DNA of 63,407 nt, counting the filler, from Reclinomonas americana ATCC 50394 (lineage: Eukaryota): NCBI GenBank assembly GCA_048213135.1. It is 16 parts of 16 records of this genome, joined end to end, with 100 filler letters (N's around TTAATTAATTAA, not from the genome) between each part and the next. Parts side by side here need not be neighbours in the genome. Positions count along the whole stretch, not along the records: positions 1 to 7,234 come from AFZH01020408.1; positions 7,335 to 13,659 come from AFZH01020411.1; positions 13,760 to 18,269 come from AFZH01020412.1; positions 18,370 to 23,331 come from AFZH01020413.1; positions 23,432 to 30,226 come from AFZH01020414.1; positions 30,327 to 33,933 come from AFZH01020415.1; positions 34,034 to 35,039 come from AFZH01020416.1; positions 35,140 to 41,571 come from AFZH01020417.1; 8 more parts are not named here. One strand, given 5' to 3'. This document shows positions 2,170-60,600 of the stretch, one piece after another. The notes under the pieces were generated by a model. The model searched no databases, was not told where the DNA came from, and saw only the letters and a program-made list of their open reading frames with translations. Position numbers and translations under genes: made by a program. Each line of letters begins with the position of its first letter. Position 1 is the first letter of the stretch.

Positions 2170-2660
2170 GGGCTCGGACTGCAGCAAGAGCTGCTCGACA
2201 TGCAACGCTGCCGGCACGCAATCGTGCTCGACGGGTCGCCCTGGCACCGGCTGTGTGTGCAAGAGTGGATACAGTGGACCGACATGCGCGGTCGTGGCGC
2301 CGCCGCCTGTGTGCACCAGCGACTCGCAGTGCATGGGGTACGGTGTGGGTCATGCTGACAATGGTGGCCTGTTTGTCGGCGGGCGATGCACGAACAAGTT
2401 GCGCGAAGCTAGCTAGCAGCTCACCGAAACAGCCACTTTACTTGATGCTGACACGATCATATGTGTGCTGCAGTGCGTGTTCTTGCACCTACCCGTATGC
2501 GCCGTATGCCAGCACCGGTGCCATTGGAACGCACTGCCAATGTCGCATCGAGGGTCCGTGCCAGTTGCTGAATAAGGGCGCGACTCCGTACCAGGCATTC
2601 AACTGGAGCAATGGGCAGCGCCTCGGCTGTGTTGCGGCCACGGATGCCAAGTGCGCTTGA
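2170..2660 (+). CDS. Cys-rich EGF-like protein, 3' part (5' exons not resolved)
   Basis: Exon GSDCSKSC...CVCKSGYSGPTC...GGRCTN joins in frame through a GTTGCG..CAG intron (2398-2473) to NACSCTYPY...CQCRIEGPC...AKCA-stop. EGF-like CxCxxGYxGxxC pattern. Confidence 0.55.
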
Positions 2661-2845
2661 GGAGGAGGCAGTGAAAGACCCCACTCTATGCTTCACCGTG
2701 CCATTGTCTAGAAATATGCAGTCTGCAAGAGGCTGTCGACAAGCCAGAACAGCAGCAGCAGAGTTCAGTTGTTGCCCATCGGCGGCGCTTGCGCAGCGTG
2801 AGCCACAGCAAAAGCGTGCGGGAGGGCTCGAGCAGTAGCGAGGAG

Positions 2846-3197
2846 ATGCCGAGTTCGCACGGCACACCGACCATCCCGCCAGAGTTTATGACAAACGCCC
2901 AGCCACCAACCGTCACGGAAAACAGTTGCGTTGCACTCCCGAGTCAGGTACGTGAGCATATATATTGTGTGGCCGGTGACTGTAACGCCATTGTAGATCG
3001 ATGGAATCGTTTCTGGTGGCGCTGGACGGTGCGCGCGACAGTGTCTTTATTTTGTTTGGCGCTTGTACACTCATGACCTTTTCGTCCATCAACAGCACCG
3101 GTCGCTCCCCATGTGGCTCGTGCCCGTGTGCTTCACTCTGGCCTGGGCCACTGGCGTATTCCTCATGTACCTGACATTGCTCACCGTCGCTCGGTAG
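2846..3197 (+). CDS. Small (~70 aa) single-pass membrane protein, hypothetical
   Basis: Three exons splice in frame: MPSSHGTPTIPPEFMTNAQPPTVTEN|NRWNRFWWRWT|HRSLPMWLVPVCFTLAWATGVFLMYLTLLTVAR-stop. Hydrophobic C-terminal helix. Confidence 0.5.
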
Positions 3198-3571
3198 GTG
3201 GCTCTCGGTCTTGGTAGCATTCGCGACGAGTTCTCACCTGCTCCATTCGCAGTATTCTTACCGACACGGAGGGCGCCGGCAGTGTCGCCAACGCCTCCTT
3301 CATTAGTGGTGAGTGTGCCAGCCAGCAATCCGTTTTGCGCCCTTTTCTGTTGCCTCACTGCGTTTTTCGCTCCGCAGTGGTACGTACGTGTGTGGGCATG
3401 TGACATGTCTGTTGGTTTTACATATGTCTTCTGATACCAACACCTCTTGCTATCTTTCTCGTTTCCTTTGTGGAATTCGGCGTCAGATCCATGCTTGTCA
3501 TGAGCCGTGGTTTCTCTTGCAGAAACATTAGCCATCTCGACTTTTTCTCGCTTTTTTCGTGATGTCTGAGT

Positions 3572-3641
3572 TTCTGGTGCTCACTCAAGATGGTGATCAT
3601 CAAGCAGCTGTGTTGCTGTTTGGATTAGTAAAGTTGTTGTT
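3572..3641 (+). repeat. ~65-bp dispersed direct repeat (copy 1)
   Basis: CTCAAGATGGTGATCATCAAGCAGCTGTGTTGCTGTTTGGATTAGTAAAGTTGTTGTT recurs almost exactly at 7447-7578 as two tandem copies. Confidence 0.9.
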
Positions 3642-57000: not shown

Positions 57001-57231
57001 CGCTGTTGCGTCCAAGCAGATGATTGACACGATCCACCACGTAGCTGGCCATGCGTGCAAACAAGCCACGCTTGGGCGCCTTCGAGACAGAGAGAGAGAG
57101 AGACATGAGCGCGCAATGACGAGACACACTTTTTTCTTGCATGCGTGCAAAAAGGCGTTGCTCACCCGTGGATACGGTACGCCACTGTTGGCGCGTGCAA
57201 GTTGCACACGGCCTCCAGGAACGTAACTCAT
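54061..57231 (-). CDS. Nuclear basket nucleoporin, Nup153/NUP1-like; spans gap at 55833, 3' end in gap
   Basis: N-terminal GGRVQLAR..VPYPR|APKRGLFARMASYVVDRVNHLLG; SDTARRIMEHLERLSTP motif; Ala/Pro/Thr-rich region with repeated (G)FKPPAAA. Confidence 0.65.
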
Positions 57232-57534
57232 TGGTGTGTATGCGACTTGGGGGGGGGGGCACGCGGTCAGCACACGGTGTTAAACACAAAAGTAGGGGTA
57301 CAGTACCCCAGGAAAAGGAAATTTCGAGTCGGGANNNNNNNNNNNNNNNNNNNNNNNNNNNNNNNNNNNNNNNNNNNNTTAATTAATTAANNNNNNNNNN
57401 NNNNNNNNNNNNNNNNNNNNNNNNNNNNNNNNNNGAGAGAGATGCTAGCCAAGCAAGGAGCACATAACCCACACAGCAATGATGACAAGTTTCGTGCCAG
57501 TACATATAGCAAGGAGCATCATCATGATCATATC

Positions 57535-57633
57535 GGTGATCGCCAACAGGTCTCGTGTTCTTTCCACTTACAACCAACGCTGTTCAAGTGGATGCACATG
57601 TTACATACACGAGACTTGTTGGTGACGATCACC
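57535..57633. repeat. Imperfect inverted repeat
   Basis: GGTGATCGCCAACAGGTCTCGTGT (57535-57558) pairs with ACACGAGACTTGTTGGTGACGATCACC (57607-57633), with one mismatch and a 3-nt bulge. Confidence 0.85.
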
Positions 57634-60600
57634 TGCTAGCAGTGCACTGACGTCAAGATGCTCATTACTATGGATCAGTGAACTGGCCAGAGTACTGTCG
57701 CCGAGCACTACAAGAAGAGGGACACCAGAAAAAAGAGAGCGACGAGAGACCTATGCATATATGGGACGACATCACACAGAGAGGTAAACAAGTGAACCAT
57801 AACACACATACAGAGAAAAATAGTGCACGCTGAAGTGCGTATGCGCAGCGTGCGTTGAGTGTGCTCACACTGACAAACAACCATGATAGGAGAACCTTTT
57901 CTACTCACACACTTACCTTCTGTCATGAGTCTTGGATATCGCAAATCCAGAGGGTGTACGTGCTGGTTGCTGACAGCACCGTGTGCTGGCGCCAGCAAGT
58001 GTCTGTGCCCTGCGGCCTGCGCGCTATCGTCCTGCACACCAAGTGCGTCTTGCCTACCGAACAACAGTGCGGTACTGCGTTCTGACTGCACAGCGCCTAC
58101 AAAATGAATTGCACTTGGGTGAGAGATCGGTCTCAGATCAGCAGAATGCATGTGTCGACTGACTCTGTTGTGCCATAATAGCGCTATTCACAGTCTGCCC
58201 TTCTCTTTTCCACATAGTGATACACGACGCAACTTGCTATGGCATCAAGGATTCTGACGTGATCTGATAACGCCTTCAAGGCCGTTTTTTCGGCCGTGAA
58301 CGCGCCAATCTTCGTCCTCATCAACATGCACCTGGTGCATTCTGCACCGCCGCAGTTGAAGACACGGTGGCGATGATCAATGTCGGAGCTGACGCCTGAC
58401 GACGTCAGCAGTGCATCCAGCAGTGCACTGGACTCTTCCTTGGCAGTAAACAGTGTCGACATCTCATGCATATGACTCGCCGCCGAGAAGAGTGCCGCAA
58501 GTTTCAGTGCAGAGCCAACCAACACTGATGAGCATGTGAGCCAACCAGCCTCTGGCACAAGTACTCGCAGCGCAAGTCGTAGATCAGTGTCGGTGAGCGT
58601 AGCAGCACGAGAGCGCAACTGCGTGCGCACAGTGGCGGTGGAACCGCAGTCTGCAGTGGACCCGCCTGCATGCGCAGCTGATTGCAGTTGAGTGTCGGTG
58701 CCAGTGCCGTCCAGACGAGTTGACGTCTTCTCGTCGATGAACACGGAGCACTCATCCACCAGTCTCCCAAACGCCTCGCGGATCACATCATGCGCATCGC
58801 GTCGTGGTGCACCACCACCAGCTGCCACTGTTCTTCCAGCGCCAACGTAAACGACATCAGTCGATGATGCATGCGGTGGTGCTGCAGCAGTGGTCTCCGA
58901 TGCGGAACGAGGCTGCATGTGAGACGCTGACCCCAACTGCATACGATACGATGTCCACATCCTAAACAATTGGTCATAGCAATGCCGAAGGCGCATAACC
59001 TGTCTGTCATCCTCATTCCGAGTAAAAGGCGGGAGTGTCGGTGCCGTGACGCCGTCACCACTCTTGCACACATCATTCTCGACTCCCACAAGATAAGCAC
59101 GTGCCCTCGTCAAGACGATGCCGTTGCAGGCGATAATACGAGCTGGCGGCAGTGGCAGCGTGTTTTCAGCTGCAGCTGGTGGTGAGGCCAGCCAATTTTT
59201 CTCCTCGACTCCGCCACCACCATCCGGCGGCGGAGCCATGAGCATGAATTGTGAGTTGATGATTGCAGCAACCGTGCACAGATACTCATCCAGGGTCCAG
59301 TCGCACACTGAAGGTGGCAACGNNNNNNNNNNNNNNNNNNNNNNNNNNNNNNNNNNNNNNNNNNNNTTAATTAATTAANNNNNNNNNNNNNNNNNNNNNN
59401 NNNNNNNNNNNNNNNNNNNNNNCGTGGACCAGACGACGTTGCATCTAGGAGAGAGAGAGAGAGAGCGCAAGTCCGGCAAGCAAGCGACAAGTGCATTCAG
59501 ATGAGCAACCAACACGAATGCACATCAAAGATACATGGCGCACTCACCGTCGTCATCATGCTGAGCACTCTCACGTTGATGATTGGGCCCGGGGGCAGCG
59601 GGAGAAGAAGAGTTCCAAAACTGTGCGCCCGCGCCAGCAAGTACGGCACACTGAATGCGGCGAAGGGCGTGAACCACGCGCTGTCTCTCCTCACTGAGCT
59701 TGTTGAGGTGGATTGCACCAGCATCCGGGTCGCTCAAGAGGGCGACCCACAGGCGAGGCAAGTCATTGCGCAAAAAGCGCATGAAATCGACAGCGGACAA
59801 GTGAAGCTGGCGACCATCACCACCACCACCACCACCATTGCCACCACTCGCAGCTGCGCACCAAACAATCAAACAAAGATGCCGTGTCAACAAACAAATG
59901 ACATGCGTGCTGCGCACGATCCACACATAAATTAAATATGCACACACCGCCACCGGATTCTTGGTCAGGCCTGTACATGTGCTCACAATCGCGAACGACA
60001 CCGGCAGCCGCCGTCGCACTGCTTGTCGACGTGTCCTGATCATGCATTGTTGCAGTGACTGCAGAGAGACGATGCAATGAAGACTGTGAGTACACCGCTG
60101 GTGGTGCACCGATGCGATGCAACAACAACAATCTCACCTCCACCAACACCTGCTGCACTGTGACCAGCATCGACATCGTCGGTGCCAGCATCGTCGACGT
60201 GCATCGGCTGTGATGATTCATCACACTGAATGCGCGACAGGAGTGCTCGCAGGTGCGACACCGACAGATGGAGAGGAGACTCGCCACTGTCCGCATGTGA
60301 TTCAGTGGAACCAGCTGATGCGGAAAAACATCGGATGCAGTTATCGATCTGCTTCTTCACGTGCAGCAGTTCCCGCGCGATCGTCGCCGTTTCGTCACAC
60401 AACGACCCGAGAGAGAATGCGTTCCTCTCGCCATCCCGCGCAAGCATCTGCAAGTGCGCCGACACGCCTCCATGCGTCACGCGCACGACACCGTTCGACA
60501 AGCTTGAGGTACACGGCACGATGCTCGCCAGTGCGTCCAAGTAGCTCAGCCAGCACTGCAGGTCCACCACATCCTCCTCTGGATCTGCCATACTTTTGGC

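Follow-up and report, generated by a model that had tools for sequence, protein, structure and literature searches.

The introns of Reclinomonas americana ATCC 50394 carry two kinds of 5' splice site (donor) in the stretch of its genome analyzed here, a joined sequence of 63,407 nucleotides (nt) from assembly GCA_048213135.1 that is referred to below as the window. Ordinary donors read G/GTGCGT or close to it (a slash marks an exon boundary), combining an exon-terminal G at -1 with GT, loosely kept bases at +3 and +4, G at +5, and T at +6. Beside them stands an abundant class in which the G lies at +6 in place of +5 and which is almost exclusively GTTGCGT. This class had been described in an earlier note on the same DNA, and the excess of its motif, together with the positions that protein comparisons fix for its members, leaves little doubt that it is real. 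For counting, class S was defined as GT donors that have T at +3 and G at +6 but a base other than G at +5, and class N as GT donors with G at +5. Class S accounts for about 18–23% of introns, namely 8/35 in a curated, non-redundant set and 17/95 when model-predicted introns are included. On a tentative reading, to which we give somewhat less than an even chance, these are genuine, ordinary U2-type GT-AG introns whose 5' signal lies one base out of register.

Motif Abundance and Sequence Rules of Class S

The earlier note listed 27 donors of this type, and all 27 coordinates bear the hexamers that it assigned to them, comprising 21 GTTGCG, three GTTTCG, and one each of GTTACG, GTTCTG, and GTTGTG. 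Counted on both strands, the heptamer GTTGCGT occurs 43 times in the window versus 16.9 ± 4.2 times in 100 dinucleotide shuffles, none of which reached 43. Copies preceded by A, C, or T (HGTTGCGT) number 40 versus 13.8 ± 4.0 in the shuffles, so that the G-preceded copies (GGTTGCGT) stand at chance level, with 3 observed and about 3.1 expected, and the whole of the excess is confined to copies that follow A, C, or T. Related heptamers were compared with the expectation of an order-2 Markov model:

Heptamer; observed; expected
GTTGCGT; 43; 13.3
GTTTCGT; 17; 8.1
GTTTGGT; 15; 7.6
GTTGAGT; 9; 7.6 (not enriched)

The proposal that every member of the class equals an ordinary donor with one T inserted is thus borne out only in part. 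It agrees with the enrichment of GTTGCGT, GTTTCGT, and GTTTGGT and fails for GTTGAGT, which shows no enrichment although it is the T-inserted form of GTGAGT, an ordinary donor that is equally common. Class S is not simply any ordinary donor plus T. Literature searches by motif and by topic, judged by title and abstract, returned no paper naming GTTGCGT as a splice signal.

The distribution of introns among donor classes was as follows, with only one of two paralogous ammonium transporter (Amt) genes entered in the curated set and the predicted set drawn from outside the training genes:

Intron set; total; class S; class N; other; non-GT
Curated introns; 35; 8; 23; 3; 1
Model-predicted introns; 60; 9; 34; 13; 4

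The last base of the exon separates the two classes. G at -1 was found in 0/8 class S and 23/23 class N introns of the curated set (Fisher, 1.3e-7), in 0/9 and 22/34 of the predicted set (5e-4), and in 0/17 and 45/57 overall (2.3e-9), and it precedes none of the 27 listed sites. Set against the composition expected from codon position, -1 G is depleted in class S (0/17 versus 5.5 expected; P=0.0012) and -1 A is enriched (9/17 versus 2.6 expected; P=0.0002). Within the intron, class S is tightly constrained, with G at +4 in 14/17, C at +5 in 15/17, and T at +7 in 16/17 donors, while class N is much freer at the equivalent positions, having +3 G in 33/57 donors and +4 C in 26/57.

Placement of Individual Donors

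Sixteen GTT-type donors, 15 of the 27 listed and one new, are fixed to the base by a protein profile, a solved structure, or a paralog. The Amt profile was built from eight bacterial Amt genes, and that for a gene resembling protein disulfide isomerase (PDI) was built from 80 homologs. Two kinds of alternative boundary were scored, in which either the donor was moved 3 nt downstream to give a GC donor or both intron boundaries were slid by one base. The Amt profile aligns gaplessly with the first Amt copy over FCAAA/GTVMSGAVA/ERIKFS/GYL, a segment interrupted by three consecutive GTT-type introns, and the eight-exon model of the PDI-like gene scores 454.3 bits against the 80-homolog profile. 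At 34695, the upstream exon matches residues 237–272 of human AFG3L2 (chain 6nyy_A) and its last residue corresponds to 274; codon 275 is split by the intron, and the downstream exon resumes from 276. Numbering is likewise contiguous at 41288, where the second match to CMTR1 (chain 4n48_A), that of a 20-amino-acid exon, is weak (E 0.63), yet it is the sole protein match for that exon. These profiles and the residue numbering of the PDB chains uphold the five motif anchors proposed earlier, namely SGAVA/ER, VTGDG/GSSVEG, CGHCKALEG/AL, PEE/YKGGR, and VDM/KHLD.

The 27 listed donors divide into three groups. Besides the 15 that are fixed in position, five (38765, 44863, 49497, 49781, and 53525) have the support of the gene model only and are grouped with 53371, which is plausible as the donor of a 63-nt in-frame intron, and for the other six (2398, 2925, 31204, 42062, 52415, and 58233) neither the gene model nor local scoring gave coding support. 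The latter six could be introns of untranslated regions (UTRs) or chance matches. Thirteen further copies of GTTGCGT, scored locally, also showed no coding support. The individual donors are given below with the evidence that places each of them; "unlisted" marks those absent from the earlier list, and costs refer to the alternative 3 nt downstream.

22604..22610, minus: class S donor GTTGCGT of intron 1, Amt-cyclase copy 1; frame and paralog, conserved Trp; cost 2.2 bits
21757..21763, minus: class S donor GTTGCGT, Amt copy 1; gapless Amt profile; cost 2.8 bits
21652..21658, minus: class S donor GTTGCGT after a 27-nt micro-exon (SGAVA/ER), Amt copy 1; gapless profile; cost 6.2 bits
21567..21573, minus: class S donor GTTTCGC after an 18-nt micro-exon, Amt copy 1; gapless profile; cost 6.0 bits
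18722..18728, minus: class S donor GTTGCGT, cyclase part of copy 1; reading frame (672 codons, 28 exons) and paralogy only
27637..27643, minus: class S donor, Amt copy 2, homologous to 22610; paralog alignment and open frame
26782..26788, minus: class S donor, Amt copy 2, homologous to 21763; paralog alignment
26687..26693, minus: class S donor, Amt copy 2, homologous to 21658; paralog alignment
26581..26587, minus: class S donor GTTTCGT, Amt copy 2, homologous to 21573; curated paralog model
23777..23783, minus: class S donor, near-identical 3' part of copy 2, homologous to 18728; reading frame and paralogy only
38164..38170, minus: probable class S donor GTTGCGT (unlisted) after the signal-peptide exon of the PDI-like gene; gene model, the hydrophobic leader joining the mature N-terminus in frame
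37775..37781, minus: class S donor GTTGCGT (CGHCKALEG/AL), PDI-like gene; gapless in the 80-homolog profile; cost 5.8 bits
37063..37069, minus: class S donor GTTGCGT (PEE/YKGGR), PDI-like gene; gapless profile; cost 6.4 bits
36301..36307, minus: class S donor GTTGCGT, PDI-like gene; 80-homolog profile; cost 2.7 bits
34695..34701, plus: class S donor GTTGCGT (VDM/KHLD), FtsH/AFG3L2-like gene; contiguous residue numbering in 6nyy_A
41282..41288, minus: class S donor GTTGCGT (VTGDG/GSSVEG), CMTR1-like cap methyltransferase gene; 4n48_A, 243/244
38759..38765, minus: class S donor GTTGCGT, gene upstream of the PDI gene; gene model and coding potential only
44863..44869, plus: class S donor GTTGCGT, LRR gene; gene model only
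49497..49503, plus: variant donor GTTCTGT; gene model only
49781..49787, plus: variant donor GTTGTGT; gene model only
53371..53377, plus: probable class S donor GTTGCGT of a 63-nt in-frame intron, which the gene model read through; local score 27.7, CTGAC branch motif, CAG acceptor
53525..53531, plus: variant donor GTTTCGT; gene model only
53702..53708, plus: possible class S donor GTTGCGT (unlisted); gene model only, local support weak
37302..37308, minus: ordinary-register GC-AG donor GCGAGTG with exon -1 G, PDI-like gene; FPTIKW/FPKG gapless in the homolog profile

A second GC-AG donor, gca/GCGAGT at 4394 on the minus strand, is predicted by the gene model only.

Retention of the Class in Two Amt Paralogs

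The two Amt genes lie on the minus strand of separate contigs (18370–23331 and 23432–30226). The model of copy 1 has 28 exons that form a single open frame of 672 codons, interrupted by 27 GT-AG introns of 58–239 nt. Copy 2 is built in the same way, and micro-exons of 10, 16, 18, 18, 27, and 28 nt are conserved between the paralogs. The 5' two-thirds of the two copies have diverged to the point that exons are roughly 80% identical and introns cannot be aligned, while the 3' third (18370–19850 and 23432–24910, minus strand) is about 97% identical, introns included. This mosaic pattern suggests gene conversion or a partial recent duplication.

The diverged part allows the persistence of the donor class to be followed. 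As the earlier note had held, the class is retained at homologous introns whose bodies have diverged, with all four class S sites in this part showing the same bases from +1 to +6 in both copies. The hexamers of ordinary donors mostly differ between the paralogs, and no site switches class. At the four sites, the synonymous third codon base that precedes the donor differs between copies (T/C, T/A, C/T, and A/C) and is never G; generally, G makes up 35% of such third positions.

Two further features of these genes were observed. Copy 1 is extremely dense in introns, 27 of them interrupting 2,016 nt of coding sequence and most measuring 58–83 nt. In both copies (18370–22661 and 23432–27724, minus strand), the ammonium transporter is joined in frame to a class III adenylyl/guanylyl cyclase domain, with motifs …IVVGFTDIEGSTALWE…GDAFMVSF…, and the contig ends before the frame closes.

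Class S Introns Outside the Donor

Apart from the donor, class S and class N introns resemble each other. Median lengths in the curated set are 72.5 nt for class S and 72 nt for class N; a CTNAY branch motif is present in 13/17 and 42/57 introns, at a median distance from the 3' end of 18 and 20.5 nt; and C occupies position -3 in 16/17 and 49/57. An all-against-all blastn comparison of the 95 introns for families of intron bodies yielded just 21 short matches of microsatellite type, and these did not group by donor class. Since class S introns are ordinary in their 3' features and share no bodies, their 3' ends are most simply taken to be recognized in the U2-type manner, which argues against a U12-like class and against an introner family.

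A Proposed Displaced Register for U1 and U6

Laid one base to the right, H/GTTGCGT differs from the ordinary consensus (G)GTGCGT at one position only: G+1 replaces the exon -1 G, T+3 replaces T+2, and G+6/T+7 replace G+5/T+6. With A enriched and G absent at -1, the class fits a register shifted by one base (G+1:C9, A-1:U10) and not a bulged one. The small nuclear RNA (snRNA) side of the model that follows is what we infer from the observed positions and sequence rules of the class and from its likeness to ordinary introns. Cleavage would still occur before the only GT. A U1-type snRNA would be bound with a shift of +1, forming A-1:U10 and G+1:C9, tolerating a mismatch at C8, and resuming with T+3:A7, while U6 would hold G+6/T+7 in the place usually taken by G+5/T+6 and loop out one extra base. 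Such pairing would need a U1 5' end in R. americana that can pair with GCG, whether that of the general U1 or of a variant. Because the pair at C8 is lost, the site would be weak and would require the best possible pairing downstream; this would account for the near-constant GCGT and for the selection of A and avoidance of G at -1.

Mean duplex energies (kcal/mol) were calculated for three U1 5' ends, of which two are hypothetical:

U1 5' end; class N; class S; 600 random GT sites
Canonical U1 11-mer; -6.43; -1.51; -2.81
Complementary to the class N consensus (hypothetical); -9.05; -6.76; -5.50
Complementary to the class S consensus (hypothetical); S -10.48, by construction

With canonical U1, class N pairs mostly in the canonical register; class S adopts that register at 0/17 sites, and no shifted duplex was found. 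Because canonical U1 pairs with class S less well than with random GT sites, recognition of the class by base pairing would need a non-canonical U1 5' end, and the weakness of this pairing makes a variant U1 or U6 for class S more likely.

Several points weigh against ordinary U2-type introns read in a shifted register. The shifted register is unstable with canonical U1, whose binding to class S falls short of its binding to random GT sites (p=0.01). An end complementary to class N discriminates class S from random sites modestly (p=0.02) and gives the shifted register at only 8/17 sites. The avoidance of -1 G is total, which exceeds what a simple shift predicts, as a G-U wobble should be tolerated there. 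At -2, G is found in 9/17 class S donors and not the C that pairing with U1 G11 favors. The 3' exon begins with G after 13/17 class S versus 19/57 class N introns (p=0.0022), an unexplained difference through which the mRNA junction of class S introns nearly always has a G on one side or the other (example acceptors on the minus strand are 21686, 21592, 37446, and 36250). The usage, efficiency, and exact cleavage site of class S donors are deduced from proteins only. Finally, every count is drawn from some 20 genes of a single 63-kilobase window, two of the best of these genes being paralogs, and 60 of the 95 introns are taken from our gene model, which learned its donor scoring from the curated set.

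Alternative Explanations

Some of the same observations can be accommodated by a second, dedicated U1-like snRNA whose 5' end (...ACGCAAC...) is complementary to the whole of GUUGCGU, an alternative that is possible but rather doubtful. Such a variant would be one base off a U1 adapted to GGUGCGU, introns would be split between two U1 species, and class S would avoid -1 G and +5 G against unproductive capture by the general U1. If this unlikely arrangement held, the major spliceosome would operate two parallel 5' splice-site codes, with a second U1 for about a fifth of introns and the U6 contact displaced by one base. It would suit the near-invariant heptamer, which is identical across diverged paralogs while ordinary donors drift, the avoidance of both anchors of ordinary recognition, and a complementarity to the canonical U1 end lower than random GT sites show; one U1 matched to ordinary donors would also hardly distinguish class S from random GT sites (-6.76 versus -5.50). 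Variant U1 genes exist in human. Set against this, a Rfam scan of the window, at the gathering score or at E<=1, detected no such RNA; the parts of the literature cited below describe no organism in which two U1 species with different 5' ends are each devoted to a separate donor class; and a single RNA working in two registers accounts at least as simply for a class S consensus that equals the ordinary one moved by a base. That the S-complementary end fits well (-10.48) follows from its construction.

The earlier note had proposed a bulged register, with a variant U1/U6 as the alternative; in the bulged register, the general U1 pairs G+1:C8 and U+2:A7, bulges U+3, and resumes from +4 to +7, with U6 behaving likewise. 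Bulges at +2/+3 and at +3 are validated in human, where 68 and 51 sites of 201,541 are predicted to use them (PMC4856993), and when -1 was set to G in silico, a (-1, 1, 2, 6, 7) register was obtained at 7/17 sites with a mean energy of -4.38. This register leaves C9 free and should therefore favor G at -1, yet none of the 17 members and none of the 27 listed donors has it, and GGTTGCGT shows no excess; nor does a bulge predict the enrichment of A at -1. We accordingly set this explanation aside as very improbable. A predicted donor ttc/GTAGCGT at 15521–15527 on the minus strand (gene model only), with A at +3, GCGT at +4 to +7, and a non-G base at -1, would, if real, fit a bulge better than a shift.

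Slightly less probable still is a transformed and expanded minor intron class, U12-like with an altered consensus. The massive expansion and transformation of minor introns reported for Physarum provides a precedent, and a rigid 7-nt motif, the lack of -1 G, and a U1 complementarity below random could be read in the same way. However, GTTGCGT is unlike RTATCCTT; the branch motif (CTCAC or CTGAC), its distance from the 3' end, intron length, and the terminal CAG are those of ordinary introns; and no U11, U12, or U6atac gene was detected in the window.

An artefact of boundary placement or assembly, whether a GC donor (GTT/GCGT) 3 nt downstream, a one-base slide (G/TT...AGG/), a homopolymer error converting GTGCGT to GTTGCGT, or a shared mobile family, is scarcely credible: GC-AG introns do occur, as at 37308, and G follows the acceptor AG at 13/17 sites, where a slide would yield the same mRNA, but the 3-nt alternative lowers the profile score at 7/7 sites tested (by 2.2–6.4 bits) and disrupts otherwise gapless alignments. 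At two more sites, the residue numbers of the PDB chains continue unbroken. The slide, which gives the same protein at three Amt sites, fails at the 4/17 sites with a non-G next base and at 22610 replaces a conserved Trp at a cost of 3.2 bits. A non-G base follows the acceptor for the donors at 22610, 27643, 34695, 38765, and 53525. An erroneously inserted T would, moreover, have left the -1 G of ordinary donors in place (observed, 0/17), the motif is identical in the two independently assembled paralog contigs, and the 95 introns contain no sequence family beyond the short microsatellite matches described above.

Window, Gene Models, and Neighboring Genes

The window consists of 16 contigs of about 1–10 kilobases joined by linkers of the form N44-TTAATTAATTAA-N44 (7235–7334 and 14 further sites), across which features are not to be read. 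Its GC content is 55.5%; (GT)n and (GA)n repeats are plentiful, and microsatellites lie at the ends of many contigs. Pfam matches to raw open reading frames identified a WD40 gene, the two ammonium-transporter genes, Nop53, BCNT, an FtsJ-type methyltransferase, a short-chain dehydrogenase, and the PDI-like gene, which has two thioredoxin domains and an ERp29 C-domain. A 129-amino-acid exon of the PDI-like gene has top matches of 54–62% identity scattered over a EukProt entry, sponges, cnidarians, and plants.

The gene finder was trained on 61 curated introns, 13 of them of class S, and is therefore not independent with respect to donor type. Of the 61, it finds 58 again; its 21 gene models contain 120 predicted introns, which take in 19 of the 27 listed donors and add those at 38170 and 53702. 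A donor-agnostic, self-trained finder was dropped, as it was too noisy, missed micro-exons, and stalled in its training loop; in its noisy output, GTTGCG was still the commonest donor hexamer, with 7–9 of 111–120 predicted donors.

The Rfam scan gave no match in the window at the gathering score, and hence no snRNA gene; at E<=1 it gave solely microsatellite-type noise in microRNA and small nucleolar RNA families. Neither threshold revealed U11, U12, U4atac, or U6atac within the window.

Genes with WD40 repeats at 197–1261 (plus) and 3994–7234 (minus) are nearly intronless, unlike their intron-dense neighbors. The first consists of one exon, and its closest relatives are bacterial-type WD40 proteins; the second has a 2,840-nt exon with NACHT-like and pentapeptide-like parts. 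Further copies of HGTTGCGT are grouped on the minus strand in two regions, 7335–13659 (12809, 12585, 11495, and 11229) and 45900–51600 (46569, 47044, 47226, 47231, 50941, and 51546). Both clusters fall where the gene model calls no gene, and they may mark genes of unusual composition, UTR introns, or non-coding transcripts.

Significance

The freedom of the spliceosome in the distance between the GU and its contacts with U1 and U6 has so far been studied at a handful of rare human sites. In R. americana, a layout displaced by one base apparently occurs in roughly one intron in five, in essential conserved genes and beside micro-exons of 10–28 nt. This would provide a natural system for asking whether U1 alone or also U6 tolerates the shift, whether snRNA variants divide the work, and what separates the two classes. 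There is also a practical consequence, as a fifth of this genome's introns would be called wrongly by gene finders whose training donors have G at +5. Such mis-prediction may be why a collection of 5.8 billion proteins returned no protein of this organism.

Comparison with Known Systems

The closest parallel to class S, read as a displaced register, is found among human donors at which U1 pairs one base downstream of its usual position, so that the G of GU pairs with C9 and the exon base -1 with U10 (PMC4856993, PMC9311317, PMC11162779). The model oligonucleotide for this register is ACA/GUCAAGUAUA (Table 2, PMC4856993). On this reading, class S would share with these sites the displacement of U1 by +1 and the G of GU in the place of -1 G, and it resembles them in its enrichment of A at -1 and its G at +6. 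The human sites are rare and have a long AAGUAU match to canonical U1, and validated non-canonical registers of every kind account for 1.5% of 201,541 human sites (PMC4856993). Class S differs in that it comprises about 18–23% of introns, has the rigid form GTTGCGT, and pairs stably with canonical U1 in no register. It also resembles donors of the bulged +2/+3 and +3 registers, being GUU-type with what looks like an extra base between +2 and +5 (PMC4856993); those registers keep the -1 G:C9 pair, whereas -1 is never G in class S.

Adaptation of the U1 5' end to its donors has been described in Entamoeba, where an AACAAAC end accompanies GUUUGUU, and in Mastigamoeba, where ACGUAC accompanies C at +4 (bioRxiv 10.1101/2022.06.08.495308). 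These cases show that a U1 5' end can be altered to suit its donor, including one with C at +4 such as GTGCG here. Each of those organisms has a sole U1 and one consensus of normal register with +5 G, unlike the two registers that occur here within the same genes. Thecamonas and Mamiellales also prefer C at +4 yet keep a standard U1 (bioRxiv 10.1101/2022.06.08.495308), so that adaptation of U1 cannot be assumed. Diplonemid donors read (G)/GTATG, and few YTRAY branch motifs accompany them (PMC12621601).

Two donor classes within one genome are also known from animals and plants, where AG//GUNNN and NN//GURAG donors show an anti-correlation of -1 G and +5 G (PMC11732430). The likeness lies in the coexistence of two classes that differ in how information is divided between exon and intron. 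Here, in contrast, class N carries -1 G (23/23 curated and 45/57 overall) together with +5 G, and class S carries neither and has G at +6, which makes the split between S and N a different partition.

With respect to U6, the tandem donor of STAT3 offers the only described example of a displaced register (PMC11162779). As may be the case for class S, the contact of U6 C42/A41 can sit there one base off its usual distance to the cleavage site. In STAT3, this concerns one regulated site, and the contact is one base closer, at +4/+5; in R. americana, it would lie one base further, at +6/+7, in about a fifth of introns.

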